DNA from: Acidobacteriota bacterium
Lineage (GTDB): Bacteria; Acidobacteriota; Thermoanaerobaculia; UBA5066
Reading direction: 5' to 3'
Length of the DNA: 53,970 nucleotides
NCBI GenBank assembly: GCA_030278895.1
Contig: JARXKK010000005.1
Coordinates: 1 to 53,970, forward strand
The position numbers were made by a program, and so were the translations under genes. This document shows positions 1 to 53,422 of the stretch, in pieces (position 1 is the first letter of the stretch; every line of letters starts with the position of its first letter). The notes under the pieces are model-generated. The model worked only from the letters and a program-made list of their open reading frames with translations. It was not told where the DNA came from and made no database searches.

Positions 1-445
1 GCCGCGGAATCCGCTTCGCCAGCGCCGCGACGTGCGCGCGCTGCGAGCGCTCGGCGTCGAGGAGGACGAAGCCCGCGGCGCCGCACTCCGTGCCCTTCTC
101 GATCGCCCATTCGATTCGCGCAGGCTCCGCGCACGCGAGGAGGATCGTGACGCGGTTGGCAGACTCGCCGGGAAGGGGAAGAGAAGAGGAAGAGGAGGAG
201 GAAGAGAAGATTTGCTTAGAAGGTAGGAGGACTATGGCCGCGCCGCCGCGCACGAGGCGCGCCGGGGCCCGTGCGCCCTTTCCGTCGAGCGCGACGACCT
301 CGTCGCCGTCGCGCAACCGGCGGGAGCGGACGTGTTCTCTTTCTTCCTTTCTAAGAAGAATTTCGGCCTCTTCGGACGATCCCAGCCGGGCAGCCAATTC
401 AGGGACGAGAAGCCGCGGCGGCCGCGCGAGCGGGTTCTCAGCCAT
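1..445 (-). CDS. rsmE: 16S rRNA m3U1498 methyltransferase RsmE (3' end runs off the window)
   Basis: Not in the ORF track; manual translation from ATG at 445 gives ...EHVRSRRLRDGDEVVALDGKG...RIEWAIEKGTECGA..., typical RsmE motifs; follows prmA as in the canonical dnaJ-prmA-rsmE order. Confidence 0.85.
   Translation of the reverse strand, partial: MAENPLARPPRLLVPELAARLGSSEEAEILLRKEEREHVRSRRLRDGDEVVALDGKGARAPARLVRGGAAIVLLPSKQIFSSSSSSSSLPLPGESANRVTILLACAEPARIEWAIEKGTECGAAGFVLLDAERSQRAHVAALAKRIPR
201..364. repeat. Convergent pair of the dispersed GAAGATTTTCTTAGAAGG-type motif, inside rsmE
   Basis: GAAGAGAAGATTTGCTTAGAAGG at 201-223 and reverse copy CCTTTCTAAGAAGAATTTC at 346-364. Confidence 0.65.
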
Positions 446-1286
446 TAGAAGAAATCCAGGCTGTCCCGAGCCACTCGCTCTCCAGAATCGAACGGACCTC
501 CCGGAAACCCTCTCTCCGAAGCAAAGTCTCCCACTCCCCTCTTCTCTCGACGAGCTGCCCCGAACAGAGAAGCCGCCCACCGGGCGCGAGGCGGGAGTGG
601 AGCGCCGCGAGGAGAGGCGCGACCTCCTCGTGGATCATGTTCGCGACGATCACGTCGAAACGGGCGGTACCGCGCAGCGCCTCGAGAGGCCCCGCGAACG
701 TCGAAACGCGCGCGATTGCGTTCGCGCGCGCCTGGTCGCGCGTCGCGAACGCGGCGTCGGGGTCGAGATCGAAGGCGACGACGTGCCGAGCACCCTCGAG
801 CGCGGCGACGAACGCGAGCGTCCCGGTCCCGCAACCCACGTCGAGGACGCGGGCTCCCGCGAGGTTCTCGGCGAGCAGCAGCCGCACCGCGAGCCGCGTG
901 GATTCGTGCGAGCCGGTTCCGAAGGCGCGGACGGCGGGGAGGAAGAGCCGGCGAACGCCGGGCGGCGAGGGCGTTGCGAGGCCGCCGTCGTGGGGGTCGA
1001 AGAGATAGCGCTCCACGAAAACGGCTTTCCGCAAGGCAGCCGACTCGGCGACCCAGTCGGTGGATTTTTCTTCGAAGGTGAGAAGGCCGGCAGCCCCGAG
1101 CTCCGCGAGCGACGCCAGCGCGGCCGGGACGTCCGCAGAATCGACCCAGACCGAGACACCGCCGTCAGGGGCCGCCGCAGACGAAAACTCCAATCCCCCT
1201 AAACCTTCTAGGAAATCTTCGTGCTCTTCGAACCTGGCGGCGAGCGCCGCGGGAACCTCGATGCGCACGGCGCGACCGTCGGTCAC
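438..1286 (-). CDS. prmA: Ribosomal protein L11 methyltransferase
   Basis: [10 protein letters not shown] motif, [12 protein letters not shown]-binding motif, DVIVAN; downstream of dnaJ. Confidence 0.9.
1063..1220. repeat. Convergent motif pair inside prmA
   Basis: GATTTTTCTTCGAAGG at 1063-1078 and CCTTCTAGGAAATCTTC at 1204-1220. Confidence 0.6.
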
Positions 1287-2407: not shown

Positions 2408-2430
2408 AGGCAACTGCACCAAACCCGAGG

Positions 2431-4281
<1,851 letters not shown>

Positions 4282-4299
4282 TTGGCGCCTCCTCGTTCC

Positions 4300-7573: not shown

Positions 7574-7584
7574 ACTGGGTGCCG

Positions 7585-12006: not shown

Positions 12007-12033
12007 GCGCTACGCACTCCCGACCCCCCCGCA

Positions 12034-12063
12034 CTTTCTAAGAAATCTCTCTCTTTCTTCTCC
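12034..12063. repeat. Unpaired copy of the dispersed motif upstream of secA
   Basis: CTTTCTAAGAAATCTCTCTCTTTCTTCTCC, directly followed by extended -10-like TGCTAAACT (12064-12072). Confidence 0.65.
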
Positions 12064-12109
12064 TGCTAAACTCCGCCTTCCGCGCGCAAGCCGTGCGGGC
12101 CCACCTTTC

Positions 12110-16469: not shown

Positions 16470-17242
16470 GCCATCCAAGTCATCTGAGCGCGCCCTCCTT
16501 CAACGACCACTTCTCGGGCCATGCGGGCGACTACGCCCGTTATCGGCCCACGTATCCACCCGAGCTCTTCGACGCCGTTGCGGCTCTCGTCACGCGGCAC
16601 ACCCTCTGCTGGGACGCGGGCACCGGGAGCGGCCAGGCGGCCGGCGGCCTCGCCGGGCACTTCGCGGAGGTCGTCGCGACGGACGCGAGCGCAGACCAGA
16701 TCGCGCACGCGGCGCCGTACGAAGGCGTGAGCTACCGCGTGGCAGCCGGCGGGAATTCCGGGCTGGAAGACGCGTCCGTCGATCTCGTCACGGTCGGCCA
16801 GGCCGTTCATTGGTTCGATCAAGAAAGATTCTTCGATGAGGTCAGGAGGGTTACGGTTCCGGGGGGCGCCATCGCGGTATGGGCCTACGATCTCTTCGAG
16901 GTCCCGGAGTCGGCCGCGGTGGAGGAAGTCTTCCAAGCCTTCCACGCGTCCGTCGAGGCGTTCTGGCCCCCGGAACGCGCCCTGGTCGCTCGCCGCTACG
17001 CCGATCTCCTGTTCCCGTTCGAAGAAATCCCCGTCCCGCCCGTCACGATGGCGGCCGCATGGAACCTGGAACGGACTCTCGGCTACCTCTCGACGTGGTC
17101 CGCCGTGAAGCGCTGCGCGAAGGAAACCGGCCGCGACCCGATCGCCGAGTTCGCGCCGCGCTTCGCCGCCGCGTGGGGCGATCCCGCCGCGCCGAAGACG
17201 TTCTCCTGGCCTCTCATCCTCCGCGCGGGACGGATCGTCTGA
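16466..17242 (+). CDS. Class I SAM-dependent methyltransferase
   Basis: [40 protein letters not shown]. Confidence 0.88.
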
Positions 17243-17649: not shown

Positions 17650-18805
17650 CTATTTCGGCGCTCTCAAGAGCATTTCCACCTCGGCTTCGATCTCCTTCTT
17701 CAGATTCGTGAAGCGCTCCCCCGTCGCCGGGCCGTCGAAGCCGGAGTGGATCTTCACGATGTGGTGCTGTCGGTCGAGGAAGAGCGTCGTCGGGTAGCCC
17801 TCCCATCCCGCAAGCGGAAGCGTCGCCGGAGACGCCGCCGCGTCCTTCGTGGTGCCCGCGAGAAGGATCGGATGCGTCGTGCCGAAGCGCTCGACGAACC
17901 GCTTCACCTGGCGGCGGTTCCGCTCCACGTCGTCCGTGTACTCGAACGAGAGGGAGAGAACCGCGAGCCCCCGCGGCCCGTACTTCGCCGCGAGATTTCG
18001 GAGAAACGGCGCCTCGTCCGCGCAGTTCGGGCACCACGTGCCCATGAAGGCCACGAGCATCGGCTTACCCGCGAAGCGGGCGTCCGCCGTCGAGACGACG
18101 CGGCCCTCGACGTCGGGAAAGGACACGACGTAGGGCGCCGCGGGATCGCGCGGCTTCACGATGTCGAAGGAGCCCGGCAGGAAAGTCTCCCGGGAGGCCG
18201 CGTCCAACCGCTTTCCGCGCCAGGGCACGGGCGGATTCGTGCGCGAGCGGTACGCGCCCGCGAGCGTGCCGTCCGGCAGCAGCTCGGCCCGTGACGGCGC
18301 TCCCCGACTGGCGAAAGATGCCCGTCAGCTTCTCGGTCTTCTTCCCGTCGAGCATCTCCACGCCCCAGCTTCCGTCGAGGGACGCCACGGGATTCCCGGC
18401 TTTCGGCGGCGACACCGGCGCACGCGGCTTCCGAGAAGCTCGAAACGGCACTTCCGCCAATCCGGCCGCGACGACGCGCGTGTACCCGCCCTCGAGCCGG
18501 TCGCCCTTCAGTTCCGCGACGAGCCTTGCGTCGTAGTTTGCGAGCTCGAGCGTGAGCTTCTTCCCGTCCCAGGACGCCGACGTGAACGCGAACTCCACCC
18601 GGTCATTCACGAGCGCGGCCGAAAGCCGCGAGCCCTTGGCGGTGATCTTCAGGTCGAAGAAGACCTCGTGCCCTTCGGACGGCACGAGCGCCGCGTGCCA
18701 GAGCCCGACGGGTGCTTGCGCGGAGGAGGAAGAGGAGGAAGAGAAGATTTTCTTAGAAGGTAAGAGAAGGAGGGCCGCAGCGAGGGCCAGCGCGCGAATT
18801 CTCAT
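17650..18805 (-). pseudogene. Exported TlpA/redoxin-family protein split by a frameshift near 18290
   Basis: N-terminal ORF (signal peptide, beta-rich domains) reads to ...GSAVTG; the continuation (AELLPDGTLAG...MGTWCPNCADE...GYPTTLFLD...HSGFDGPATG) is in another frame. Confidence 0.7.
18723..18762. repeat. Copy of the dispersed motif in the TlpA signal-peptide region
   Basis: GAGGAGGAAGAGGAGGAAGAGAAGATTTTCTTAGAAGGTA, nearly identical to 186-225. Confidence 0.8.
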
Positions 18806-20190
18806 TTCTTCTCTTTCTTCTTCCTGAGCGTCTCACGAAGCGAACGGATCGCCTCGGCGCGCGCCTTGAGGTCCTTCTCGCGGCCCTCGCCCGAGGGCCG
18901 GTAGTAGTTCCGTCCCGCGAGGGAATCCGGCAGACAGGACAGTCCGGCGGTCTTCTCGACGGTGTCGTGCGCGTAGCGATAGCCCGCGCCGTAGCCGGCC
19001 TGTTTCATGAGCTTCGTCGGGGCGTTGCGAATTGCGAGAGGCGGCGGCTCGTTCGGGCGCTCGTGCACGTCGGCTGCAGCCTCGGCGTAGGCCGTGTAAA
19101 GCGCGTTCGACTTCGGCGCGAGCGCCATGTGAACGGCGATCTCGGCGAGCGCGAGAGCGCCTTCCGGCATGCCGATGAAGTGCACGGCCTCCTTGGCGGC
19201 GACCGCGAGCGTGAGCGACGACGGATCGGCGAGCCCGATGTCCTCGGACGCGAAGCGGACGAGGCGGCGCGCCACGTAAAGCGGGTTCTCCCCTGCTTCC
19301 AGCATCCGCGCGAGCCAGTAGAGCGAGGCGTCGACATCCGAATCGCGGAGCGACTTGTGGAGCGCCGAGATGAGGTTGAAGTGCTCGTCGCCAGCCTTGT
19401 CGTAGAGCAGGACCTTTCGCTTGAAGAGATCTTCAAGGATGGGAACCGAGAGAGAAGGAGAAAGAGAATTTTCTTTGAAAGGAAGATGGGAGACGGCCGC
19501 CTCGAGAGCCGTGAGCGCCCTTCGGGCGTCGCCGTCGGAAAAGCGTCCTAACCATTCGAAGGCGTCTTCTTCGACCGTGGCCTTGGCGGCGAGGCCCCTT
19601 TCCTGATCCGCCAATGCCCTCTTCATCAAAAGAATCAAATCCTCTTCTTCGATTGGCGGAAGGATGACGACCCTGAGCCGCGACAGGAGCGCGCCATTCA
19701 GCTCGAACGACGGGTTTTCCGTCGTGGCGCCGACGAGGACGATGTCTCCCGCTTCGACGAACGGCAGGAAGGCGTCCTGCTGCGCCCGGTTGAAGCGATG
19801 AATCTCGTCGACGAAGAGGAGCGTGCGGCGGCCCCGGCGCTTGGCGCGGGTTGCCTCCTCCATCACCGTCCGGATCTCCTTGATGCCCGAGACGACGGCC
19901 GAGAAGCCGATGAAGCGAGCCTGCGTCTTCGCGGCGATGATCCGGGCGAGCGTCGTCTTGCCGCTCCCCGGCGGACCCCAGAAGACGAGAGAAGGAACCC
20001 TGTCCGCAGCGAGCGCCTTCGCGAGAAACGAGGCCTCCCCCACGAGATCGGGTGGACCAGCGACCTCGGACAGGTCCCGGGGGCGCATCCGCTCCGCAAG
20101 CGGGGCGTCCGAGGGCACAGGCTCGTCGACCGCCGACCGACCGGAAGCCGGGCCCTCATCCTCGAAGAGGTCTCCCGGCGAGGACGTCAC
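18802..20190 (-). CDS. rarA: Replication-associated recombination protein RarA/MgsA
   Basis: PLAERMRP, WGPPGSGKTT, VDEIHRFNRAQQD, GATTENPSF, ISALHKSLR, ASEDIGLAD; GTG start overlaps upstream stop. Confidence 0.95.
   Translation of the reverse strand: MTSSPGDLFEDEGPASGRSAVDEPVPSDAPLAERMRPRDLSEVAGPPDLVGEASFLAKALAADRVPSLVFWGPPGSGKTTLARIIAAKTQARFIGFSAVVSGIKEIRTVMEEATRAKRRGRRTLLFVDEIHRFNRAQQDAFLPFVEAGDIVLVGATTENPSFELNGALLSRLRVVILPPIEEEDLILLMKRALADQERGLAAKATVEEDAFEWLGRFSDGDARRALTALEAAVSHLPFKENSLSPSLSVPILEDLFKRKVLLYDKAGDEHFNLISALHKSLRDSDVDASLYWLARMLEAGENPLYVARRLVRFASEDIGLADPSSLTLAVAAKEAVHFIGMPEGALALAEIAVHMALAPKSNALYTAYAEAAADVHERPNEPPPLAIRNAPTKLMKQAGYGAGYRYAHDTVEKTAGLSCLPDSLAGRNYYRPSGEGREKDLKARAEAIRSLRETLRKKKEKK
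19448..19650. repeat. Degenerate convergent motif pair inside rarA
   Basis: GAGAGAGAAGGAGAAAGAGAATTTTCTTTGAAAGG at 19448-19482 and CATCAAAAGAATCAAATCCTCTTCTTC ending at 19650. Confidence 0.5.
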
Positions 20191-22480: not shown

Positions 22481-22567
22481 TGGTACCGGAGGAGGGAGTC
22501 GAACCCTCACGGCCTTGTGGACCGGGGGATTTTGAGTCCCCTGCGTCTGCCATTCCGCCACTCCGGC
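22481..22567 (-). tRNA. tRNA-Leu (anticodon CAA)
   Basis: GCCGGAGTGGCGGAATGGCAGACGCAGGGGACTCAAAATCCCCCGG...GGGTTCGACTCCCTCCTCCGGTACCA; long variable arm, encoded CCA. Confidence 0.97.
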
Positions 22568-23067: not shown

Positions 23068-24159
23068 TCACTCCGCCCGCTCGCGCGAGGCGAACCGGTC
23101 GAGCCTGAAGACGGTTCTCATGTCCCCCACGACGTCGCCGCGCACGTTCTTCACGGGCCGCCGCGCGAGACGACGGAGCGCGGTGAGACGCGCGCCCGAG
23201 ACGAGGCCGAGCTGCCGCAGGACCTCGACGGTCACGGCATCGCGCCCCCGCTCGGCCCCGTCCTCGATCTTCAGCGCGATCCCGACGGATGAGGTGGCGG
23301 AAAGGGAGCGCGCCAGAGAGGGCGCGACTCCGACGGCGTAAACCCCTTCGGCCCCCTCCTTCGCGAGGAGGTCTCCGCCGAACGCGCGCATGAGGTTCGT
23401 CGTGAACCGGCCCGTTCCCGCAACCATCTCGGGGGCCGACGTCATCGCCTCCGCGATCCGGACACGCGCGCGAAACGCGCGCGGAGCCTCCCCCCGCACG
23501 CGCGCTCCCTTCAGCCGCGCATACAGAAGCGCCAGATTCGCGAGCGGGATCCGGAACACGGGCACGGAACAACCGTCCACGGCGAGGCCGATCGCCGCCG
23601 CCGGAACGCCCGCGAGAAGAGAGAGCGCCGACAAGATTTTCTTCTGAAGGGGGTGAGACGGCTGCCAGTACGTCTTCGCGTCTTCGCCGAACAGGCGGCA
23701 AGCAAGGAGCATCGCCGCGTGCTTTCCCGAGCAGTTGTTGTGGAGCGGGCCGGGGTCCTCGCGGCGGAAGGCCAGCGCGCGGGCGGTCTCCTCGTGCATG
23801 GGCGGATGCGCGCCGCAGTGGAGGTCCGCGGCCGTGAAACCTCCCCGCGCGAGCATGGCGGCCGCGGCGCGCGTGTGAAACGGCTCGCCGCCGTGCGACG
23901 CGGCCGCGAGAGCAATCTCTTCCGTCGACAGCCCGAAGCGCTTCTCGCCTCCGCCCGCGAGGAAGGGAACGAGCTGAACGGGCTTGGCCGAGGAGCGCAG
24001 AAAGACGAGCTCCTCGGGATCGCCCGCCGCGGCCAGGAGCCTCCCATCCTCGGCGACGACCGCCACCGAACCGCGATGAACGGACTCGACGACACCGCCC
24101 CGCCTCACCACGAGGAGGGGGACGCTTTCCGGGAGCGAACCGCCGCGCACGCCGATCAT
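23068..24159 (-). CDS. L-asparaginase II family protein (Rhizobium AnsA type)
   Basis: RGGVVESVH, RSSAKP, ASHGGE, HNNCSGKH, DGCSVP, KEGAEG, KIEDG. Confidence 0.9.
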   Translation of the reverse strand: MIGVRGGSLPESVPLLVVRRGGVVESVHRGSVAVVAEDGRLLAAAGDPEELVFLRSSAKPVQLVPFLAGGGEKRFGLSTEEIALAAASHGGEPFHTRAAAAMLARGGFTAADLHCGAHPPMHEETARALAFRREDPGPLHNNCSGKHAAMLLACRLFGEDAKTYWQPSHPLQKKILSALSLLAGVPAAAIGLAVDGCSVPVFRIPLANLALLYARLKGARVRGEAPRAFRARVRIAEAMTSAPEMVAGTGRFTTNLMRAFGGDLLAKEGAEGVYAVGVAPSLARSLSATSSVGIALKIEDGAERGRDAVTVEVLRQLGLVSGARLTALRRLARRPVKNVRGDVVGDMRTVFRLDRFASRERAE

Positions 24160-38452: not shown

Positions 38453-38498
38453 GGCCCACCCGATACAATCCGGCCACGCGCGCGCACAAGGAGGACGG

Positions 38499-39911: not shown

Positions 39912-41050
39912 ACGAGGAGAGAAAAGACCTCGTTCGACAGGAGAACGCCGCGGCGCGTGAGGCGCACGCGGTCGGATTCTTCTTCGAGCAGTCCGGCAAG
40001 GAATGCGTCGTTCATGCGGGCGATGGAGTCGGGAGAGAGAGATTTTCGGATTTCTTCGAAAGTGGAAGAGGGGACGCCGCCCGACAGGCGCAGGCCCAGC
40101 ATCAGCCCCTCTTTCCTTCCAAGAAAATCCTCCTGGGGCTTTTCGGACGTTGCGACCGTCGATTCGCCCGCACGCGTGCGCCTCAGGTATTCGGTCAGCA
40201 TCCCCGTATTCGCCGTCCGGATTCTTCCGTCGAACGAATGCGCGCCGACCCCGAAGCCCAGTACAGGCGTCATCTGCCAGTACTTGAGGTTGTGGCGGCT
40301 CTCGAATCCCGGCCGCGCCCAGTTCGAGAGCTCGTAGCGCGGAAGACCCGCCGCCGTCAACCGATCGTCCACGGCCTCCCACAGGTCCGCCATCTCGTCG
40401 TCGTCCGGGAACAGCTCCGGCCGCTCCTTCTTCAGGGAAACGAGCCGCGGGGCCTTTTCCAACTCCAGGAGGTACACCGAAAGGTGGGAGATTCCACACG
40501 ACACGAGCCCGTCGACGCTTCCAAGAAGGCTCTCGAGCGTCTGGCCCGGGATGCCGATCATGAGGTCGGCCGAGACGTTTCCGAAGGTCCGGACGGCGGC
40601 CGTGACGGCGCGGCGCGCGGCCGCGGCGTCGTGGCGGCGCTCCAGCGGCACGAGCTCGGCGTCCACGAGGGACTGCACGCCGACGGATAGGCGATTGACG
40701 CCGATGTCGCGGAGCGCGGCCAGTTTCGAGGCGTCGATATCGTCGGGATTCGCTTCGGCCGTAATCTCCACATTCGAAGAAACTCCGAATATTTCTTCGA
40801 GTGAAGAGAGCACGCCGCCAAGCCTGCGCGCGTCGACGTAGCTGGGCGTTCCCCCTCCGAAGTAGACGGTGTCGAAGTCGAGCAGAGCGCCCGTCGCTTC
40901 CGTCCCCCTCGAGCGAATCTCCCTCTCTAACCCCTCAAAGAAATCTTCTTCCTCTCCTCTCCCCTCCAAAGCAATGAAAGAGCAATACGTGCACCTATGC
41001 GCGCAGAAGGGCACGTGAACGTACGCGCCCGGGGCCCGGGATTCGTTCAC
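39908..41050 (-). CDS. hemW: Radical SAM heme chaperone HemW (HemN-like)
   Basis: YVHVPFCAHRCTYCSF, YFGGGTPS, EANP, RLSVGVQS, YELSNWA...SRHNLKYW. Confidence 0.92.
   Translation of the reverse strand: MNESRAPGAYVHVPFCAHRCTYCSFIALEGRGEEEDFFEGLEREIRSRGTEATGALLDFDTVYFGGGTPSYVDARRLGGVLSSLEEIFGVSSNVEITAEANPDDIDASKLAALRDIGVNRLSVGVQSLVDAELVPLERRHDAAAARRAVTAAVRTFGNVSADLMIGIPGQTLESLLGSVDGLVSCGISHLSVYLLELEKAPRLVSLKKERPELFPDDDEMADLWEAVDDRLTAAGLPRYELSNWARPGFESRHNLKYWQMTPVLGFGVGAHSFDGRIRTANTGMLTEYLRRTRAGESTVATSEKPQEDFLGRKEGLMLGLRLSGGVPSSTFEEIRKSLSPDSIARMNDAFLAGLLEEESDRVRLTRRGVLLSNEVFSLLV
39974..40133. repeat. Convergent motif pair plus an extra copy inside hemW (3' part)
   Basis: GGATTCTTCTTCGAG 39974-39988; GATTTCTTCGAAAG 40049-40062; reverse CCTTCCAAGAAAATCCTCC 40115-40133. 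Confidence 0.5.
40787..40967. repeat. Convergent motif pair inside hemW (5' part)
   Basis: GAATATTTCTTCGAG from 40787; reverse CCCTCAAAGAAATCTTCTTCCTCTCCTCTCCCCTCC 40932-40967. Confidence 0.55.
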
Positions 41051-41706: not shown

Positions 41707-41715
41707 GCCGCGATC

Positions 41716-43780: not shown

Positions 43781-43808
43781 CGGATCCGAGACTAGCAGGA
43801 CCGGTCGA

Positions 43809-44159
43809 TCAGGAGATTTCGGCGGCGAGGCGTACGCGGGCCGCTTCGAGGCGGGGGCGCACCACGTGCAGCTGGCCCGTCGCGTCGAAGACGACGAGGA
43901 CGAAATAGCCCGCCTTGACGTGCGTCGTCAGGATCCGGCGCTTCTCGAACTCGAACGTGAGATCGGCGATCTCGCCGAGGGAGGACCGCTCCGCCGCGCG
44001 CCGCAGCTCCCCCATCCAGACGGACTGATAGGCCCCGAGGACCTCCGTCGCGGCGGCGTCGCCGATCCGCGCGATGATCTCGCCCTGCGAATCGATGAAG
44101 GCGGCCCCGAGGGCGCCCGGCGCGTCGAGGAGGCCTTCGAGGGCATCGGCAAAGCTCAT
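43809..44159 (-). CDS. Roadblock/LC7 domain protein (MglB/MglC-like)
   Basis: 116 aa; PGALGAAFIDSQGEII...GYFVLVVFD pattern of the roadblock fold. Confidence 0.75.
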   Translation of the reverse strand: MSFADALEGLLDAPGALGAAFIDSQGEIIARIGDAAATEVLGAYQSVWMGELRRAAERSSLGEIADLTFEFEKRRILTTHVKAGYFVLVVFDATGQLHVVRPRLEAARVRLAAEIS

Positions 44160-44956
44160 CGTTCGACTCCCGGAGCCGCGGGCTCGTTCGCGAGAAATCG
44201 GCGCGCACGGCGTCCTTCGTCGCTTTCCGGCGCGGCGCTGACCGTGCGCTGCATGTAACGCGCCGCGAGATCGCGCCGGCCGTTAGCCAGGAGACAGACC
44301 GCGGCCTGATAGTTCGCCACCGGATCGCGGGGATCGTTCTTCAGCACCGTCAGAAAATCCTCGAGCGCGCCCTTGAAGTCGTCGAGCTTCACGCGGGCGA
44401 GACCCCGCGCGCGGAACGCGCGGTCGTTGTCCGGCGAGTCGGCGAGCGTGAGCGAGAACTCGCGCTCGGCATCCCGCCAGGACTCGCGCCGGCTGTAGAG
44501 GAGCCCGAGGTTGTAATGCGCGTTGACCTTCTCCGGGGACGGCGGGCCATCGAGGACGGCCTGGAAATCCGTTTCCGCGTCGTTGTAGTGTCCCGCTTCC
44601 AGCTGTGCCACACCTCGGTTGTTCCGCGCCTCGACGAACGTGCCGTCGAGGTGGAGCGCGTCGGAAAAGGCGCTCACAGCGCCCTTGTAGTCCTTCTTGT
44701 AGAGGAGAGCGAGGCCGAGCGCGTTGGGCACGTGCGGATCCCGAGGCGAGCTCGTGCGCGCGCGCTGAAGAAGCGCGATGGCTTCGTCCGCCCGGCCCTC
44801 CCGCAGCATCGCGAGGCCGCTTCGGTAGTCGACAAGGTCCGCGAGACCGGGGTTCTCCTTCGGAGGCATCGAGGCGCTCCCGCATCCGGCGAGCCCCGCC
44901 AGCGCAACGAGAGCGGCACACGAGAGGCGGAGGCCCGCGGCCTTCGACGCTCTCAA
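44156..44956 (-). CDS. TPR lipoprotein (PilF/PilW/Tgl pilotin-like)
   Basis: Lipobox LAGC; TPRs with NALGLAL, EARNNRG, AHYNLG. Confidence 0.8.
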   Translation of the reverse strand: MRASKAAGLRLSCAALVALAGLAGCGSASMPPKENPGLADLVDYRSGLAMLREGRADEAIALLQRARTSSPRDPHVPNALGLALLYKKDYKGAVSAFSDALHLDGTFVEARNNRGVAQLEAGHYNDAETDFQAVLDGPPSPEKVNAHYNLGLLYSRRESWRDAEREFSLTLADSPDNDRAFRARGLARVKLDDFKGALEDFLTVLKNDPRDPVANYQAAVCLLANGRRDLAARYMQRTVSAAPESDEGRRARRFLANEPAAPGVER

Positions 44957-46683
44957 GCAGAGGCCTTCAGAGGAACCTCTTCGCCCAGAAACTCGAAGTC
45001 ACCGGAGGACCACGCCTTGTCGAGCGCGGCGATCACCGCCGGGTCGAACGACTTTCCGGCGAACGACATGATCTGCGTGATGACGTAGTTGATGGGCATC
45101 GCCTTCTGGTAGGGGCGCGTCGTCGTCATCGCGTCGAACGTGTCCGCGACGGCCACGACCCGCGCGACCATCGGGATCCCCTCGCCCTTCAGTCCGTCCG
45201 GATAGCCGCCCCCGGACCACTTTTCGTGGTGGTGCTTGATGCCCGGGATCACGTCCTTGAGCTGCGGAATCTGCCCCATGATGAGCGCGCCCTTGGCCGG
45301 GTGCGTCTTCATGATCTCGAACTCCTCGCTCGTGAGGGCGGTGGGCTTCCGGAGGATGCGGTCGTCGATGCCGATCTTCCCGACGTCGTGAAGCAGGGCC
45401 GACAGGCGCACGACGCGCACCTCTTCCGGCGAGAGGTCCATGTGGCGCGCCAGAACGACGGCGTAGCGCGCGACGCGCTCGGAATGCCCGCGGGTGTACG
45501 GGTCCTTCGCGTCGATGGCGGCCGCAAGCGTCTTCACCGAATTGATGAACAGCTCCTGGTTCTCCTTCGCCGCGAGCTTCAGCTTGTCGACCGACTTCTC
45601 GATCGAGTCGGACATCGAGTTGAACGTCTCGGACAGCTCGGCGAGCTCCCGGACGCCCCGCACCCCGACGCGCTGCTTGAAGCTGCCCTCCGCGATCGAC
45701 CGCACCTTGTCGACGAGCTCGACGAGCGGATGCGCGAGGAGGCGAGCCGCCACGAGGGCCACGATCGCCGCGAAAAAGAGTGAAAACACGGCGATCTTGG
45801 AGGACTCTCTCTTCATCTGGGACACCGACGCATAGGCGGCCGCTTCGTCCTTTTCGACGATGACGCCCCAGTCGGGCGTCGGGATCGTCGCGAGAGTGCC
45901 GAGGACCCGGTGCGCCGTCTTCCCTTCGCCACGCATGTACGACTTCGTGATCCTCACGGGATGCGCGATGAACTCGCTCACGAGGTCGAGCTGGTGCACG
46001 TCCTTCGACTTGAACGCCGAGGCGTCGCTCGTCAGGATGAGCGAGCCCGAGCGGTCCACGACGTACGCGAGGACGCCGCCCCGCCCTTCTTCGTCGAGCT
46101 TCGCCTTGATGGGCCTGAGGGAGAGCAGCGCCTCGACGACGCCTATCGGCTCCTGGCCCTCCGAGGGCCTCACGGGCACGGCGAGGACCAGCGCGCCGTC
46201 CGGATAGGATTTCGGGAAGATCGGGTCGGCCACGTAGGACTCGCCGCGCATCGCGGCGTTGTAGGCCTGCCGGAGCGGGCGCTCGACGTCCGGATCGAGG
46301 GCGCCTCCGTCGGCCGCCGAGGCGACGCCGTCCCGATCGAGCGCCCTGAGAACCGGGAAGCTCGATTCGGCGTCGGCGTACTCCCGGAGAAGCTGCTTCT
46401 TGGACAGGTAGAAGAAGGGATCCGTGGACATCGAGCTCGCGAGCCGGATCCCGTCGGCGATCTTCTTGAGCTGCGACTGCGCGTTCGTGATGTACGTGTC
46501 GAAGCTCTCGGCGAGCGTCACGGAGCTGTTCTTCAGGTACTTCTTCTCGGCCGTCTCCAGGGCATCGCGGTTGATGCCGATGAGGCTGAAGTGCAGGAGG
46601 GCGAGCGGGACGATGGAGACGAGGATCAGCGCGACGAGCAGAGCCGTCACGATCCTCAGGCGCGGAACCCGGGCGACACCCAT
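44953..46683 (-). CDS. Membrane-bound HD-GYP phosphodiesterase with Cache-like sensor and HAMP domains
   Basis: Two TM segments flanking a periplasmic domain, HAMP, DPYTRGHSERV, HDVGK, HHEKWSGGGYP, DTFDAMTTTRPY. Confidence 0.92.
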   Translation of the reverse strand: MGVARVPRLRIVTALLVALILVSIVPLALLHFSLIGINRDALETAEKKYLKNSSVTLAESFDTYITNAQSQLKKIADGIRLASSMSTDPFFYLSKKQLLREYADAESSFPVLRALDRDGVASAADGGALDPDVERPLRQAYNAAMRGESYVADPIFPKSYPDGALVLAVPVRPSEGQEPIGVVEALLSLRPIKAKLDEEGRGGVLAYVVDRSGSLILTSDASAFKSKDVHQLDLVSEFIAHPVRITKSYMRGEGKTAHRVLGTLATIPTPDWGVIVEKDEAAAYASVSQMKRESSKIAVFSLFFAAIVALVAARLLAHPLVELVDKVRSIAEGSFKQRVGVRGVRELAELSETFNSMSDSIEKSVDKLKLAAKENQELFINSVKTLAAAIDAKDPYTRGHSERVARYAVVLARHMDLSPEEVRVVRLSALLHDVGKIGIDDRILRKPTALTSEEFEIMKTHPAKGALIMGQIPQLKDVIPGIKHHHEKWSGGGYPDGLKGEGIPMVARVVAVADTFDAMTTTRPYQKAMPINYVITQIMSFAGKSFDPAVIAALDKAWSSGDFEFLGEEVPLKASA

Positions 46684-47777
46684 CCGACCCTATTGTAACG
46701 CCCCAGCGCCTCATCGAAAGCCCTGGCGAGCTCGGCCGTCTCCACCCTCACGAGCATCGGCCGGCCGGGCCCGGCGAGGAGCACGGCGTTCAGGCCCGCG
46801 CGATCCGCCTTCTTGTCGGCCATGAGCAGGCCCGGCATTCCGCGAACTGCCGCCGGGGAAGGGACGGGCGGCGACACGAGCCGCATGACGCGCTGCATCA
46901 GAGCGTCCGCGGTTCGAGGCGCGAGTCCCGCACGCGCGACCGAAAGTCGAAGGGCGGCCAGGAGCCCCCACGCGACGGCCTCGCCGTGCTGCAAACGATG
47001 GCCCGACGCCGTCTCGAGGGCGTGCCCCACCGTGTGGCCGAGGTTCAGGGCGGCTCTCTCCCCCGTGCGTTCGAATGGATCCCGCCCGACGGCCCGCGCC
47101 TTCACGGCGAGTGAGCGGCGGACGGCCTCCGCCACCGCGGTGGGCTCGCGCGCGGCCAGCGGAACCTCGAGGCGCGCCATCGCGCGGTGGAAGGCCGCGT
47201 CGAGGAACGAAGTCTTCACGACCTCCGCGAGGCCGGAGCGAAATGCGCGAAGGGGAAGCGTCTCGAGCATCGCCGTGTCGACGACGACGAGACGGGGCGC
47301 ATGAAAAGCCCCTACGAGGTTCTTGCCGGAGGGAAGATCCACGGCCGTCTTGCCGCCGAGCGCGCTGTCGCATGCCGCGAGAAGCGTCGTCGGCGCCTGA
47401 ACGACGGGAACACCGCGGAGCGCGAGGGCGGCGGCGAGTCCCGCGACGTCCCCCACGGTGCCGCCTCCGAACGCGACGACTCCCCCGTCGCGCCGGAGGC
47501 CGCGCCGCATCAGCTCCTGAAGCAGCTCGCCAAGAACGTCCCAGGTCTTGGCGGCCTCGCCGTCGGGGACGAAGAGGGGGTTTTTGCTTAAGACCCTCCC
47601 GGCGCCTCCAGCCAGAAGCAACTGGCCATGGAGTTTGAAGATTTTCTTAGAGGTGATGAGAAACCAGCGGCCCTGCGCGATGGCAGCGAGGCGCTTGTCC
47701 AGCCCGGCGTACGCCCCTTCGCCGACGAAGACGTCGGTTCGAGCGCCGGCCGCGACGAAGGAAAAGTCCCTCTTCAC
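46656..47777 (-). CDS. aroB: 3-dehydroquinate synthase
   Basis: GGGTVGD, PTTLLA.CDSALGGKT, GKNLVGAF, LNLGHTVGHALE, HGEAV. Confidence 0.92.
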   Translation of the reverse strand: MKRDFSFVAAGARTDVFVGEGAYAGLDKRLAAIAQGRWFLITSKKIFKLHGQLLLAGGAGRVLSKNPLFVPDGEAAKTWDVLGELLQELMRRGLRRDGGVVAFGGGTVGDVAGLAAALALRGVPVVQAPTTLLAACDSALGGKTAVDLPSGKNLVGAFHAPRLVVVDTAMLETLPLRAFRSGLAEVVKTSFLDAAFHRAMARLEVPLAAREPTAVAEAVRRSLAVKARAVGRDPFERTGERAALNLGHTVGHALETASGHRLQHGEAVAWGLLAALRLSVARAGLAPRTADALMQRVMRLVSPPVPSPAAVRGMPGLLMADKKADRAGLNAVLLAGPGRPMLVRVETAELARAFDEALGRYNRVGWVSPGFRA

Positions 47778-47802
47778 CTTCTAAGAAATCTTCTCTTTTC
47801 TC
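47637..47802. repeat. Convergent motif pair spanning the aroB start
   Basis: GAAGATTTTCTTAGAGG 47637-47653 and CCTTCTAAGAAATCTTCTCTTTTCTC 47777-47802. Confidence 0.75.
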
Positions 47803-47819
47803 AACAAAACGTATTCTCT

Positions 47820-49583
47820 TCAGCCCTCGGTCTTCGGCGGCTTCGCGAGCGCGATGTGGAGCTCGGCGAGCTGCTCGGGCGCGACGGGATTCGGGCAATC
47901 CGTCATGAGATCCGTGCCGGAGGCCGTCTTTGGAAACGCGATGACGTCGCGGATGGACGTCGAGCCGGTCAGGATCATCAGCATGCGGTCGAGGCCGAGC
48001 GCGATTCCTCCGTGCGGCGGCGCGCCGAAGCGGAACGCCTCGAGCAAAAAGCCGAACTTCGCGCGCGCCTCCTCCGGCCCGATGCCGAGCCTGGCAAAGA
48101 TGCGCGACTGCACGTCGGAGCGGTGGATCCGGATCGACCCGCCCCCCAGCTCCATGCCGTTCAACACGACGTCGTACGCGCGCGCCTTCACGCGGCCGGG
48201 ATCGCTCTCGAGGAACGGAAGGTCCTCTTCGCGCGGCGACGTGAACGGGTGGTGCGTCGCGTACCAGCGCGCGTCCTCCGGGTGCCATTCGAGGAGCGGG
48301 AAGTCCGTGACCCAGAGGAAGTCGTAGCGCCCTTCGGGAATCAGCTTCTCCTCGCGGGCGATCTGGAGACGGAGCGAGCCGAGGAAATCGAAAACTGACT
48401 TCGATTTTCCAGCGGCAAGAAAGACGAGGTCGCTCTCGCCCGCACCGAACGAGGCGCGCATGCGTTCGATCGCAGCGTCGTCGAAGAATTTCTTAGAGTT
48501 GGAATTCCAGCTGCCGGGACCGGCCGTCTTCACCCAGAAAAACCACTCGACTCCCGCCGCCCGCGCCCCCTTCTCGATGTCGTCGAGGCGCTTGCGGGAA
48601 AACGAGGCACCTCCGGGCACGCACAGGCCCTTGACTCTTTCAACCTTCGAAGAAATCTTCTCTTCGAACCCCGGGAAATTGCCGAGCTCGAGCCCGAACC
48701 TCGTATCCGGCCGGTCGATCCCGAAGCGTTCCATGGCCTCGTCGTACGTCATCCGCCGGAACGGGGCCTCGCACGCGATACCCCACTTCGGGAAGACGCG
48801 GGTGAAAACCTTCTCGATGAGGGCGTACACCGTCTCCTCCGTCGGGAACGAGATCTCGACGTCGACCTGCGTGAACTCCAGCTGCCGGTCGGCGCGCAGG
48901 TCCTCGTCGCGGAAGCAGCGCGCGATCTGGTAGTAGCGCTCCAGCCCCGCGACCATGAGGAGCTGCTTGAACAGCTGCGGGGACTGCGGGAGCGCGTAGA
49001 ACTCACCCTCGTGGATTCGCGACGGAACGAGGAAGTCGCGCGCGCCCTCCGGGGTCGACTTCGTGAGGATCGGCGTCTCGACGTCGAGGAAGCCCTCCTC
49101 GTGCAGGACCTCGCGGATCGCCATCGTGACCGCGCTGCGCGCGACGAACCGCTGTGTCATCTCCGGGCGGCGCAGGTCGAGGTAGCGGTACTTGAGCCGG
49201 AGGTCCTCGGCGGCCTTGATCCCGTCCTCGATCGGGAACGGCGGCGTGTCCGCGCGGTTCAGGATCACGAGGGCCGTCGCGCGCACCTCGATCGCACCGG
49301 TGGGAAGGTCCTTGTTCACGGCGTCGGCATCGCGGGCGACGACGCTTCCCGTGACGTCCACGACGAACTCGCTTCGAAGCTCCTTGGCCAGGGCGAGGAG
49401 GGCGGCGTCGGGGATGAACCGGGCGTCGAAGACGGCCTGGGCGAGGCCCGAGCGGTCGCGGAGATCGATGAAGACGAGCTCGCCGTGGTCGCGGCGGCGG
49501 TTGACCCAGCCCATGAGGCGCACGGTCTTTCCGACGTGCTCGGGCCTGAGGGTTCCGGCGGGTGTTCGTGAGGGAGCGGACAT
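47820..49583 (-). CDS. aspS: Aspartate-tRNA ligase (possibly non-discriminating Asp/Asn)
   Basis: [51 protein letters not shown]; start MSAPSR. Confidence 0.96.
48483..48665. repeat. Convergent motif pair inside aspS (insertion-domain region)
   Basis: GAAGAATTTCTTAGAG 48483-48498 and CCTTCGAAGAAATCTTCTCTTC 48644-48665. Confidence 0.7.
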
Positions 49584-49594
49584 GGCCGCGGATC

Positions 49595-50866
49595 TTACAG
49601 ACGTGCCTGGAGCACGGCGGCGAGGCCCTCGCGCGGCAGCTCTTCCTGAGACCGCGTCGCGAGCGTCTTGACGACGACGGTTCCGCGAAGACCTTCCTCC
49701 TGACCGACGAGGACGGCAATGACTGCTCCGGATTTCTCGGCTGACTTGAGGGCCTGGCCGACACCCCGGTGCCCGGAATGGAAATCGACTGGGAGACCCG
49801 CCCCGCGAAGGAGCCTTGCGATTCCCCATGCGTCGGGCATATCTGCGCTGCCGACCGGAACGACCGCGATCGCGCGCATGCCTTCGAGGGCCTTCTTCCG
49901 GAAAGGCTCGGGCAGAACGTCGACGAGGCGATCCTCGCCGATGGCGAATCCGATCCCGGGAGTTTTCGGCCCTCCCAGATCGGAGATGAGCTTGTCGTAA
50001 CGGCCGCCGCCGAGAAGAGCGTTTTGGGCGCCGAGGCCCTCGGCGGTCACCTCGAAAACCGTACGGGTGTAGTAGTCGAGACCCCGGACCAGAAGAGGAT
50101 CTTCTTTAAAAGTGACCTTGCTGGCGACCAGAAGCGCTTTGAGTTCGCGGTGGTGCGCATCCGAGGCGGGATCCAGCGTTGGCAGAAGATCGACCATCTT
50201 CGGAAAGGTCTCCGAAGCGACGAGCTGCTTGACGGCAGGATCCTTCGAGTCGAGGACCCGCAGCGGGTTGTCGGCGAGGCGCCGCCGGTCGTCCTCGCCG
50301 AGCGTCTTCTCATTCGAAGAGAAAAACGTCCTCACGGCCTCGACGTACGCCGGCCGCGTGGCTTCAGTCCCGACCGAATTGATCGAAACCGAAAGGCCCG
50401 TGAAGCCAAGACGTCCGAGGAAATCGAACAGCATGACGATGACCTCGGCGTCCATCACCGCCGTCGGGTCGCCAAGCACTTCCGCGCCGATCTGCCGGAA
50501 TTCCCTGTATCGGCCCTTCTGCGGCCTCTCGTACCGGAACTGCGGACCCATGTAGTAGAGCTTCCAGGGCCGCCCCGCCTGCGCGAGAGAGTGCTCGACG
50601 TAGGCGCGTGCCACTCCCGCCGTGTTCTCGGGCCGGAGCGTGACGGAACGGTCGCCCCGGTCCGTGAACGTGTACATCTCCTTGTGGACGATGTCGGACG
50701 ACTCCCCCACGCTCCGCACGAAGAGCTCCGTGGACTCGAGGACCGGAGTGCGGATCTCATCGAATCCGTAGAGCGCGAAGACGTCGCGGGCCGCCGCCTC
50801 CACACGATTCCAGACGCGCGTATCGGGGGGCAGGAGATCCCGCGTGCCCTTGACGCTGGTGATCAC
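49595..50866 (-). CDS. hisS: Histidine-tRNA ligase
   Basis: [46 protein letters not shown]. Confidence 0.96.
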
Positions 50867-51384
50867 GACGGATCGGCGCGGAGGTACTCCGCCTTGTACT
50901 CGAGGTAGTTCTTCCAGTAGGTCTTCAGCCCCTCGACTTCGTCCGGCGAGAGGTCGCGTTTCCGCTTCGCGGGGTTGCCCGCCCAGAGCGTGGCGGGTGG
51001 AATCAGCGTGCCCGGCAGGACGACCGCTCCCGCCGCGACGAGAGCGCTCGCGCCGACGTCGGCGTCGTCCAGCACCGTGGCATTCATGCCGATGAGCGCG
51101 CCCCGGCGGATCGTGCAGGCGTGCACGACCGCGTTGTGCCCGAGCGTGACTTCCTCCTCGAGGACGAGAGGACCGGTCGTGTTCGTCACGTGGAGGGTGC
51201 AGTTGTCCTGCACGTTCGAGCGCGCGCCGATCCGGATGTGGCAGCAGTCCCCGCGCACGACGGAAGAGAACCAGATCGAGACGTCGTCGCCGAGGACGAC
51301 GTCGCCGATGACCGCTGCGGTCTCGGCTATGAAGACGCGCGCGCCGAGCTTCGGAGAAATGCCGCGGTAGGGCCGTAACGTCAT
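50863..51384 (-). CDS. Gamma carbonic anhydrase family protein (YrdA-like)
   Basis: IGDVVLGDDVSIWFSSVVRGD, NVQDNCTLH, LGHNAVVHAC, AGNPA; start MTLRPY. Confidence 0.92.
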   Translation of the reverse strand: MTLRPYRGISPKLGARVFIAETAAVIGDVVLGDDVSIWFSSVVRGDCCHIRIGARSNVQDNCTLHVTNTTGPLVLEEEVTLGHNAVVHACTIRRGALIGMNATVLDDADVGASALVAAGAVVLPGTLIPPATLWAGNPAKRKRDLSPDEVEGLKTYWKNYLEYKAEYLRADPS

Positions 51385-51631
51385 CGGAATCGCACGATAC
51401 CAAAGCCGAAAACGGCGGGATTCGGACCGCTGCACAGGCAACTGTGCGAAGCGGAAAAACCCATGTAAAAACGGCGCTTCAGGCCTGTTTTTGGTATGCA
51501 ACGCACAGGCTTTTCCACAGATCCGTTGAAATCTACTAAATAGCCTGAAACCATACGTTTACGCACCTGAAAAGCACAATCTACGGGGAATTCCTAGCGA
51601 AACAATCTCATCGTCGAAAAGGCGGCCGACC
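51385..51631. promoter_or_regulatory. AT-rich intergenic region with DnaA-box-like sites; candidate oriC
   Basis: TTTTCCACA 51511-51519 matches TTWTNCACA; degenerate boxes at 51428-51436, 51444-51452 (reverse), 51499-51507; AT-rich tract 51526-51582. Confidence 0.45.
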
Positions 51632-53422
51632 TCACGCCTTGCGCCGGACCGCGGGACGTCCTGGGCCGAAGTTCGCGAAAACGCCGAGGAGCTGCCGAGC
51701 CTGCGCCCGCGCCGCTTCCCCGACCGAAGCACCGGCGAGGAGCGCGGCGACGGCCTCGACGCGTCCCCCGCCGTCGAGCGCCTCCACGCGCGTCCGGGTA
51801 CGGCCCTTCGCCGCTTCTTTCGAAACGGAGAAGTGCCGCTCCCCGGCCGCCGCCACCTGCGCGAGATGCGTGACGACGAGGATTTGCTCCTTCGCCGCGA
51901 GGCCCCGCAGCTTCCGGCCGACGGCCTCGGCCGTAGCGCCTGAGACTCCCGCGTCGACCTCGTCGAACACGAACGTCCGGACCGGTCCGCCTCGGCGCGG
52001 GGGGCCACCCTCCTCGCTTGCCGCCTCTTCCGCGGCGAGGGCCGCCGCGAGCGCGAGCTGGACGCGCGACAACTCGCCGCCCGAGGCGATCTTCTGGAGC
52101 GGACGAGCCGGCTCTCCGGGATTCGGAGCGAAGACGAACCCCACCTGATCGATTCCGTGCGCGCCGAACGAGACGCCCCGGCCTCCCGCCGCGAAGCGGC
52201 TCTCGTCCTCCTCGTGGCGCGAGACGGCCGCCGAGAACGACGACTTCAGGAACGCGAGGTCGCGGAGATGCGTCTCCACGGCGCGGCCGAGCCGGGGCGC
52301 GGCAGCCTCGCGGGCGGCGGACAGGTCCAGCGCGGCCTTCCGGTAGGCCGCGAAGGCTCTCTCCGCGGCGTCCTCCGCCTTTCGGATGGTGCCCTCGAGG
52401 TCGGCGAGCTCGTCCCTCTCGCGGCCGAGGGCCTGGCGTTTCTCCAGCACTTCCGCGAGCGTCGGGCCATATCTCCTTTTCAATTTGGCGAGGGCGTCGA
52501 GGCGTTCCGCGACGAACGCGGCCCTCGCGGGATCGGCTTCGAGGCCCTCGAGGTCGCGGGAGGCTTCGAAAGCGGCCTGGACCATCGTCTCGATTGCGCC
52601 CGCAAGCGCCGCGCTCCGGGAGGCGTACGAAGAATCGATTTCTTCGAGCTGTTGAAGAGCACGCCGCGCGGCCGAAGCCGCCGCGATCGCTCCATTCTCG
52701 TCGGACTCCAGCGCGCCCGTGGCCGCCGAGAGAAGCTGGCCCACCTTCTCGACGTTCGCCAGTTTCTTCCTTTCAGAAGAAATCTCCTCGTCTTCCCCTT
52801 CTTTAGGCTCGACCTTGTCGATCTCCGCCATCTGGAAGTCGATGAGCTCGAGCCGCTTCGCGCGATCCGCCGCGGAGCCTTCCAGGCGTTCGACCTCTCC
52901 CCGGCGCGCGCGCCACTCGCGAAAGAGCGCGGCCGCCGCCGCCGACTTCTCCTCGAGGCCCGCGTAGCGGTCGAGGAGCTGGCGCGGCGCGTCGGGATCG
53001 AGGAGATCCCGCGCCTCCGCCTGCCCGTGGAGGACGAGGAGGCGTGGCGCGATCTCCTGCAGCGTCTTCAGGGCCGCCGGCGATCCGTTCACGAGGAGAC
53101 GGCCCTTGCCCCCGGCAGCCACCTCGCGCCGCACGACGACCTCGAACGCCCCGCGGCCTCCCTCCTCGAGGAGCCCGGCGTCCGTCAGGATCGCCCGCGC
53201 CTCCGGATCGTCGCAGTCGAAGGCGCCTTCCACGACGAGCCGCTCGGCGCCTCCCCGCACGAGCGCGGGGTCGGCGCGCCCGCCCGCGAGAAGCGTCAAG
53301 GCGTCGACGACGAGCGACTTGCCCGCTCCCGTCTCTCCCGTCAGGACGGTCAGGCCTTCGGCGAACGCCACCTCGACGTCCTCGAGGACCGCGAGGTCAC
53401 GGACGCGGAGCGACGTGAGCAC
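51632..53422 (-). CDS. recN: DNA repair protein RecN
   Basis: LTGETGAGKS, LHGQ, coiled coil, PNPGEP..PLQKIASGGELSR, FDEVDAGVSG, VTHLAQVAA. Confidence 0.96.
   Translation of the reverse strand: MLTSLRVRDLAVLEDVEVAFAEGLTVLTGETGAGKSLVVDALTLLAGGRADPALVRGGAERLVVEGAFDCDDPEARAILTDAGLLEEGGRGAFEVVVRREVAAGGKGRLLVNGSPAALKTLQEIAPRLLVLHGQAEARDLLDPDAPRQLLDRYAGLEEKSAAAAALFREWRARRGEVERLEGSAADRAKRLELIDFQMAEIDKVEPKEGEDEEISSERKKLANVEKVGQLLSAATGALESDENGAIAAASAARRALQQLEEIDSSYASRSAALAGAIETMVQAAFEASRDLEGLEADPARAAFVAERLDALAKLKRRYGPTLAEVLEKRQALGRERDELADLEGTIRKAEDAAERAFAAYRKAALDLSAAREAAAPRLGRAVETHLRDLAFLKSSFSAAVSRHEEDESRFAAGGRGVSFGAHGIDQVGFVFAPNPGEPARPLQKIASGGELSRVQLALAAALAAEEAASEEGGPPRRGGPVRTFVFDEVDAGVSGATAEAVGRKLRGLAAKEQILVVTHLAQVAAAGERHFSVSKEAAKGRTRTRVEALDGGGRVEAVAALLAGASVGEAARAQARQLLGVFANFGPGRPAVRRKA
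52637..52804. repeat. Convergent motif pair inside recN
   Basis: GATTTCTTCGAG from 52637 and CCTTTCAGAAGAAATCTCCTCGTCTTCCCCTTCTTT 52769-52804. Confidence 0.55.

Follow-up and report, generated by a model that had tools for sequence, protein, structure and literature searches.

The DNA analysed here, called the window throughout, is a stretch of 53,970 nucleotides (contig JARXKK010000005.1 of GenBank assembly GCA_030278895.1, positions 1 to 53,970 of the forward strand) from an Acidobacteriota bacterium of the Thermoanaerobaculia (UBA5066), a member of an abundant, uncultured lineage of soil, peat and sediment. It is contig C5 of an assembly of 243 contigs, 3.47 Mb in total and 68% GC. The genes rsmE, prmA, rarA, hemW, aroB, aspS and recN lie on it, and a purine-rich word recurs in or beside them, mostly as two copies (hereafter the arms of a pair) that face each other across unrelated DNA (Table 1). 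An earlier note, made from the sequence alone, had listed sixteen such arms as eight convergent pairs, and had read them as a bipartite site for something that wraps or loops DNA over a fixed length. We examined the word, its pairing and its distribution over the whole genome and in related genomes.

The core of the word is GAAGATTTCTT[A/C]GAAGGTGAAGAG, with purine-rich flanks on the same strand that bring the total to about 50 nt: positions −30 to +19 are 70-85% purine around a central TTTCTT. One exact sub-word, TTCTTAGAAGG, is present in 122 copies in the genome for 0.3 expected, and exact sub-words are present at hundreds of times their expected number. A matrix of 26 bits was refined genome-wide, and sites were called at a threshold of at least 14 bits. 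Matrix scores were bimodal, and 701 sites were found (340 on the + strand, 361 on the − strand), compared to 6 matches with a column-permuted matrix. A mirrored matrix still matches 288 places, meaning that the word is mirror-symmetric (GAAGA, TTTCTT, AGAAG); such a matrix is therefore not a valid null, and the column-permuted one was used instead. The recognition word is some 27-50 nt long, mirror-symmetric and purine-rich. Its layout (purine block, TTTCTT, purine block) is of the kind able to form an intramolecular triplex (H-DNA), GAA units repeat every 6 nt along the arm, and the arm resembles a Shine-Dalgarno sequence; the assembly lacks the 3′ end of the 16S rRNA. As for the places listed in the earlier note, 14 of the 16 arms score at least 10 bits with the genome-wide matrix, and 13 at least 20 bits.

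Merging of the sites gave 393 loci. Their distribution is close to random, with 1.14 loci per 10 kb on average and a variance of 1.24. This corresponds to 0.2 sites and 0.11 loci per kb, or roughly one locus per 9 kb. Site density differs 20-fold between contigs of this genome, and in a second genome of the genus (G019), the region C1:240001-300000 holds 6 sites in 60 kb for about 25 expected from that genome's average; it may be an acquired island.

The sites are paired, and the pairing is polar. At distances of 50-300 bp, 235 convergent pairs (+−) were counted genome-wide, against 11 divergent ones (−+) and 71 in tandem (24 ++ and 47 −−). The convergent arrangement that the earlier note described is far beyond chance. 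Counting partners per site gave the same order: clear of contig ends there are 512 strong sites, and a partner scoring 14 bits or more lies 40-300 bp off in the convergent orientation for 68% of them, on the same strand for 9-10%, and in the divergent orientation for 2%, the last value being close to the background of 2.6% worked out from site density. The first 400 kb of G019, with distances up to 300 bp, yielded 86 convergent, 4 divergent, 4 ++ and 20 −− pairs. In the convergent geometry the purine-rich strand reads 5′ to 3′ towards the partner, across 45-300 bp of unrelated and mostly coding DNA. Nested patterns such as ++−− exist, and some 25-30% of the arms are solo. Three copies in the window for which no partner had been seen by eye (12039, 18755 and 23644) are indeed without one, the best opposite-strand scores being −12.6, 3.6 and −9.1 bits respectively.

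The spacing, which the earlier note had given as a near-constant 135-140 bp with two pairs near 156 bp, turned out to be free. Spacing was analysed on sets of 181 and 197 pairs, which differ by the collapse of one paralogous kinase family. Pairs span 45-300 bp with a median of 121 bp (5th, 25th, 50th, 75th and 95th percentiles of 55, 85, 121, 158 and 260 bp); only 12 of the 197 fall at 131-139 bp and 9 at 150-160 bp, and neither 136 nor 156 bp stands out as a peak. With the genome-wide matrix the distance histogram is a flat plateau from about 60 to 170 bp. Of the two outcomes that the earlier note had named as telling against its idea, a flat distance distribution is what was found over that range, and a lack of convergent excess is not. 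The closest arms lie about 7 nt apart between their inner edges, and pairs thin out with distance. The one exact spike, at 91 bp, is due to the kinase family, which has 17 members. In G019 the pairs range from 38 to 292 bp, again with no peak at 136 or 156 bp. No periodicity of 10-11 bp (helical) or 3 bp (codon) was detected in the spacing (top spectral power 5.0, compared to 6.8 for the 95% null), and spacing modulo 3 is uniform (61/62/58). This uniformity also led us to reject a small open reading frame (ORF) between the arms.

Six of the eight pairs picked by eye stand, and two rest on non-sites, the forward arm at 39984 (1.7 bits) and the reverse arm at 19630 (8.6 bits). Within the window itself, 5 of the 10 convergent pairs do fall at 131-139 bp (134, 136, 139, 133 and 131 bp; uncorrected binomial P of 1.6×10−4). 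We read this cluster as a coincidence, because the bin was picked after looking, the window is one of many, and no peak exists genome-wide or in the second genome. Of the original proposal, a bipartite, convergent, undescribed and chromosome-wide unit is upheld by the orientation counts and by the restriction to one lineage described below, whereas a factor wrapping or looping 13-15 helical turns, as a fixed length, does not agree with a flat spacing and no phasing. A fixed-length wrap was rejected on the spacing percentiles, the missing 136 and 156 bp peaks and the missing 10-11 bp periodicity. A histone-type protein, also suggested at the time, finds no support either: the histone-fold family PF00808 was found in 0 of 41 genomes of the family, while control archaea matched; other histone-like folds were not searched. 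A DNA-tracking machine that reads pairs of sites would not require a constant distance between them, and is a possible reader here.

Two arms of the same pair are no more alike or complementary than arms taken from different pairs (z 0.1; duplex energy of −33.7 versus −33.3 kcal/mol), and neither the purine content of the outer tracts nor the scores are correlated between paired arms (r of 0.04 and 0.06). This means that each arm answers to the consensus and not to its partner. Taken together, the polar rule, the free and unphased spacing and the lack of covariation indicate that the arms answer to a common reader that heeds direction.

The copies have been made in place. What is maintained is the nucleic-acid sequence, even though this runs counter to codon preference and has changed amino acids. 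According to crude gene calls made for this analysis, 486 of the 701 sites (69%) lie in genes, 246 in sense and 240 in antisense, and all frames are used. The intergenic share of 31% falls in about 8% of the genome, and no preference for gene starts or ends was found. AspRS, encoded by aspS, aligns to solved AspRS structures through both arms with no change of length. At one of them the codons have been rewritten, in equal number, relative to APSDVLRAAVCV in out-group orthologues (70% identity), and the other replaces the out-group WNSNAKKMLDD, codon number unchanged. In AroB, a run of substitutions has put LITSKKIFKLHG in place of the out-group VVSSRPVFRRHG. The preferred base at position 0 of the word is A (111 of 189 intergenic sites); C or T takes its place in just those frames where A would create an in-frame stop codon. 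In aspS of 22 species, the A+T fraction at third codon positions is 0.34 in the arms and 0.09 elsewhere, the arms being the most A/T-rich third-position islands.

The interiors of the pairs have an ordinary GC content (0.69) and encode conserved parts of proteins, such as those of AspRS and the N-terminus of RsmE. As stated by the earlier note, the DNA between the arms is unrelated from one locus to the next: 176 of the 197 interiors match no other interior, and 17 of the 21 that do are in Ser/Thr kinases. No further motif was found inside the pairs; the most strongly enriched k-mers, among them 7-mers like AACCATC, are repeated in kinase interiors, and a mild excess of the 5-mers CAGCG/GCTGC is tentatively attributed to the same family. 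These 17 Ser/Thr protein kinase paralogues carry the pair at LPEDFLEGEE and IYSFEEI, most at exactly 91 bp (one at 92, one at 181), and lie on contigs C28, C30, C166, C84, C4, C13, C36 and C67, six of them in tandem on C28. They show poly-Ser stretches after the second arm, like rsmE, where the outer pyrimidine tract of the left arm (positions 150-205, − strand) translates as eight serines and then LLFPFP. It seems that slippage lengthens the outer purine tracts, giving rise to protein loops of low complexity.

Pairs keep their place between species. Of 22 loci whose AspRS is at least 78% identical, 21 carry the aspS pair; three more distant loci lack it. The two pairs neighbouring it are conserved as well, one of them with a spacing of anything from 133 to 190 bp depending on the species. 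A comparison of two species that lie far apart within the genus showed all 15 mappable pairs to be collinear, with both arms kept in 9 of the 15 and none inverted. The word itself is restricted to the genus. Among 301 genomes of the class, an exact 12-mer is found in 45-177 copies in each of 15 genomes of the genus, in 94 copies in that of the window, in 16 copies in one genome of a sister genus, which also carries convergent pairs, and in at most 4 copies in each of the other 284. In another sample, which overlaps with the first for the genus, the word was present in 24 of 24 genomes of the genus and in 0 of 16 from other genera of the order. Logan contigs of three independent DNA runs, from three studies, contain the hemW and aspS pairs with 0-1 differences. 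A phage origin was rejected, as a 19-mer matches only 4 viral contigs; these are AT-rich (33-37% GC), and the matches were therefore taken as chance. No replication-oriented strand skew was detected: over 350 kb of constant negative GC skew, 80 + and 89 − sites were counted, balanced in each 50 kb bin.

Table 1. Arms of the recurrent word in the window, with the score of each against the genome-wide matrix.
Feature	Positions	Strand	Anchor	Score (bits)	Remarks
Left arm of rsmE pair	193..238	+	218	28.0	partner 352, 134 bp away
Right arm of rsmE pair	332..377	-	352	32.6	
Left arm of prmA pair	1048..1093	+	1073	30.9	partner 1209, 136 bp away
Right arm of prmA pair	1189..1234	-	1209	27.4	
Solo arm, intergenic	12019..12064	-	12039	30.1	without partner
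Arm	16809..16854	+	16834	18.5	partner 17021, 187 bp away; absent from the earlier list
Arm, partner of 16834	17001..17046	-	17021	23.8	
Solo arm	18730..18775	+	18755	36.6	without partner
Arm in rarA	19451..19496	+	19476	33.9	only weak candidates opposite: 19558 (12.4 bits) and the formerly listed 19630 (8.6 bits)
Solo arm	23619..23664	+	23644	19.3	without partner
Arm, true partner of 40120	40032..40077	+	40057	28.6	63 bp apart; formerly listed 39984 is a non-site
Arm in hemW	40100..40145	-	40120	29.2	
Arm in hemW	40773..40818	+	40798	23.9	partner 40937, 139 bp away
Arm, partner of 40798	40917..40962	-	40937	29.6	
Minus-strand copy overlapping 40798 (+) in hemW	40776	-		23.5	back-to-back, 22 bp apart, local palindrome; rare divergent case
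Arm inside aroB coding sequence	47624..47669	+	47649	24.6	made by substitution relative to out-group orthologues
Arm in aspS-aroB spacer, at aroB start	47762..47807	-	47782	39.4	spacer longer than in out-groups
Arm antisense in aspS	48470..48515	+	48495	22.1	encodes SNSKKFFDD; no insertion
Arm sense in aspS	48629..48674	-	48649	35.4	no insertion; pair kept in 21/22 related loci
Weak arm	50082..50127	+	50107	15.4	partner 50316, 209 bp away; pair conserved in orthologous loci
Weak arm	50296..50341	-	50316	17.4	
Weak arm in recN	52620..52665	+	52645	10.6	partner 52776, 131 bp away
Arm in recN	52756..52801	-	52776	22.2	

Some further observations concern the window itself. A tRNA-Leu (anticodon CAA, 22481-22567, − strand) is its sole Rfam or ARAGORN match. 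The longest ORF of aspS (47820-49829, − strand, 669 aa) is over-extended at its 5′ end, the similarity to solved AspRS starting at residue 91, and hemW was truncated at its motif cluster by the crude gene caller; motif-rich stretches may disturb gene callers. Summed contig depth jumps 5- to 50-fold at 48837-49167 in four metagenome runs, which is taken to be a conserved part of aspS recruiting contigs of many organisms, with no change in copy number.

Searches of the full-text literature yielded no description of the motif, or of paired intragenic repeats in this lineage, and among the repeat systems that have been described none fits convergent, long-spacer pairs inside genes. The function proposed below is a candidate assignment. 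Repetitive extragenic palindromic (REP) sequences, their doublets (REPINs) and the associated RAYT transposases were considered and rejected, as the Y1 transposase family PF01797 has 0 matches in the genome of the window and occurs, within the genus, in 1 of 11 genomes. Its distribution is the inverse of the motif's, with 25 of 29 genomes carrying it among the other genera of the family. REPs are moreover extragenic and mobile, with a spacer shared between copies, whereas here 69% of the sites lie in genes, the interiors are unique and the arms arose by substitution. Rickettsia palindromic elements are miniature inverted-repeat elements found inside genes, as insertions of one shared sequence. 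They resemble the present pairs by their inverted ends, their size of 100-350 bp and their tolerance inside ORFs; they differ from them in that here only the two ends are shared, and that the host protein gains no length at the AspRS and AroB arms. Chi sites, FtsK-orienting polar sequences (KOPS), nucleosomes and gyrase wraps share with the word a genome-wide distribution at kilobase intervals and a role for polarity. Unlike Chi and KOPS, which are 8-mers, the word amounts to 26 bits and shows no skew with replication direction, and a word of this type was rejected on the balance of + and − sites over constant GC skew. Unlike a nucleosome or a gyrase-type wrap, the spacing is neither fixed nor phased, and no histone fold (PF00808) was found. 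We file the element as an interspersed recognition repeat that evolves in place and within genes, as uptake sequences do, and that has the inverted doublet form obligate for REPINs, plus a strict convergent rule across long unrelated spacers.

The closest likeness is with the DNA uptake sequences (DUS) of Neisseriaceae and the uptake signal sequences (USS) of Pasteurellaceae. Uptake signals of Neisseria and Haemophilus occur about once per kb, and the inverted pairs that DUS form lie close together. The present motif is about five times sparser and two to three times longer than these signals, and some 70% of its copies are paired, 45-300 bp apart, around unrelated coding DNA, strictly convergent and not as compact terminators. 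The likenesses are these: both are lineage-specific, over-represented words, found on both strands and written into coding sequence at permissive places without insertion; both are limited by stop codons and kept at orthologous positions, and some copies form inverted pairs able to fold into stem-loops. For DUS, these traits are taken from those parts of Frye et al. 2013 (PMC3630211) that treat the Neisseriaceae, where DUS are described as lying inside genes, limited by a stop codon in one frame, and as coming in lineage "dialects"; they are often found there in inverted pairs able to form stem-loops, such pairs being associated with terminators.

On these grounds we tentatively favour, as a possible rather than a probable reading, that the word is an uptake-signal-like, polar, self-propagating recognition sequence, of which the convergent pair would be the stable state. 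The reader of the tag would be a DNA-binding component, specific to the lineage, of the machinery for uptake or recombination, and the tag would accumulate by molecular drive (biased transfer or conversion) and not by a benefit at each locus. If reading is polar, so that the DNA on the 3′ side of the tag gets transferred, a copy would favour fixation of its immediate downstream sequence, a copy of opposite orientation included. Convergent copies would then be of mutual help, in a tandem arrangement only one copy would profit, and divergent copies would gain nothing, which would match the observed order, with convergent pairs above tandem ones and divergent pairs at background. That both arms of most pairs can base-pair when single-stranded would be a by-product. 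Some 800 copies of a 26-bit word in conserved proteins are more easily explained by molecular drive than by per-locus benefit, an argument also made for uptake sequences. Core competence genes are present in the genome of the window: ComEC, DprA, a ComEA-type HHH_3 protein and two secretins. The ComEA-type gene (two HHH_3; C7:646-735 and C7:796-1341) has its start and signal peptide flanked by the arms of a motif pair, and four sites cluster some 1 kb upstream of the ComEC match (C8:40794-41245 and C8:42257-43045); both are anecdotal and could be chance.

Several points weigh against this reading. The competence genes just named are widespread, so they prove nothing specific. With about 0.2 sites per kb, the density is below that of uptake signals, the motif is longer than those known, and about 70% of the sites are paired across long spacers, with no arm at a terminator-like or sigma-70-like site (no such site coincides with any arm in 38000-53970). 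Nor are sites enriched in DNA shared between species: when two genomes from different species of the genus were compared, the shared 68% of sequence held 99 of 169 sites. Finally, the step of polar mutual promotion is inferred, having been fitted to the orientation data.

Other explanations have to be set against it. A doubtful one is that the arms fold back in single-stranded nucleic acid, be it RNA transcribed from either strand or DNA, as a stem of about 20-35 bp with a loop of 10-250 nt, to be read by a lineage-specific factor or RNase III, for instance in mRNA processing or decay. In minimum-free-energy folds, 76% of 185 pairs do form 10 or more base pairs between their arms (median 22), and the aroB pair folds with z −3.2. 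The lack of helical phase and the spacing down to about 7 nt between inner edges, with a thinning at distance, are as expected for a loop, and nested ++−− patterns occur. In addition, an RNA-library contig of a relative spans both aspS arms ungapped. Nevertheless, a stem would form equally well from divergent pairs, which make up 2% against 68%; the aspS pair folds locally instead (z −0.3); there is no pair-specific covariation and no extra duplex stability; and no Rfam family matches the arms. A slight excess of wobble-compatible over A·C-type differences in the mRNA sense (844 versus 730) would fit folding, but it follows the base-composition difference between arms and may come from coding. 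The equal use of both gene orientations and of intergenic DNA speaks for no link to transcripts. We consider it unlikely, too, that the arms act in double-stranded DNA as polar sites for a lineage-specific DNA-binding protein, a reading akin to that of the earlier note once its fixed wrap is dropped. At intervals of about 9 kb, an inward pair would load, stop or anchor a tracking or bridging machine, such as a complex of the structural maintenance of chromosomes (SMC) type, a topoisomerase, a pair of helicases or a domain barrier. A strict orientation with free spacing and no need for arm complementarity is what such a site would show, and so are the near-random spread (1.1 loci per 10 kb) and a place conserved across species while the spacing of an orthologous pair is free (133-190 bp). 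Proteins touching across less than 150 bp of duplex should however show helical phasing, and none was seen; the histone-fold gene (PF00808) is in 0 of 41 genomes and no candidate protein emerged; the sites have no replication-oriented skew; and to write about 400 loci of 2×26 bits into conserved proteins by per-locus benefit alone would need strong selection at each of them. In that same unlikely case, the pairs would be the cis-code of an undescribed bacterial chromosome system, head-to-head polar sites that load or arrest a DNA-tracking machine, as inverted loader or convergent barrier sites do in eukaryotes, written even through essential genes in one acidobacterial genus.

It is very unlikely that the arms are the terminal inverted repeats of a transposon-like or recombinase-driven segment that inverts, excises or moves, be it a miniature inverted-repeat transposable element (MITE), a REPIN or an intragenic inverton. 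The inward inverted layout with a total of about 100-350 bp does recall miniature elements, solo arms (~25-30%) look like solo ends, and the aspS-aroB spacer, which holds one intergenic arm, is longer than its out-group counterparts. This last arm is the exception in the MITE test: elsewhere, a MITE was dismissed because the interiors are unique and no residues have been added to AspRS or AroB at their arms. The 176 unique interiors out of 197 are host sequence encoding conserved parts of proteins, coding arms are substitutions, and pairs keep their place across species, with 15 of 15 mappable pairs collinear between two species and 0 inverted. An inversion would not keep reading frames either, as spacing modulo 3 is uniform. 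No arm-to-arm joint was present among the joints listed from contigs of 4 runs (20-29-letter sides), contigs being prone to drop rare variants, and PF01797 is absent from the genome of the window and in 1 of 11 genomes of the genus. As to chance, composition, paralogy, or an artefact of assembly or library, we give them next to no credit. One Ser/Thr kinase family does supply 17 pairs at exactly 91 bp, and the sites were first picked by eye, two arms being non-sites; but 180 pairs are left after removal of that family, 701 sites stand against 6 with the permuted matrix and 235 convergent pairs against 11 divergent, and this was repeated in a second genome. The word is moreover in 24 of 24 genomes of the genus, from many studies, and three independent DNA runs carry the arms unchanged.

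If the word is indeed an uptake-signal-like tag spread by molecular drive, it would be the first such system outside a few cultured competent groups, in an abundant uncultured lineage, and its paired, polar layout would tell something new about the reading and spreading of uptake signals. Should the pairs instead be required by a protein or RNA machine, the ~400 conserved head-to-head sites would map its action, and a 50-nt oligonucleotide would be a simple bait for it. Under either reading, the pairs show to what extent conserved proteins can be rewritten at the nucleic-acid level, in loops of AspRS, AroB and RsmE and throughout a whole kinase family, and the motif provides a sharp sequence marker for binning genomes of the genus.

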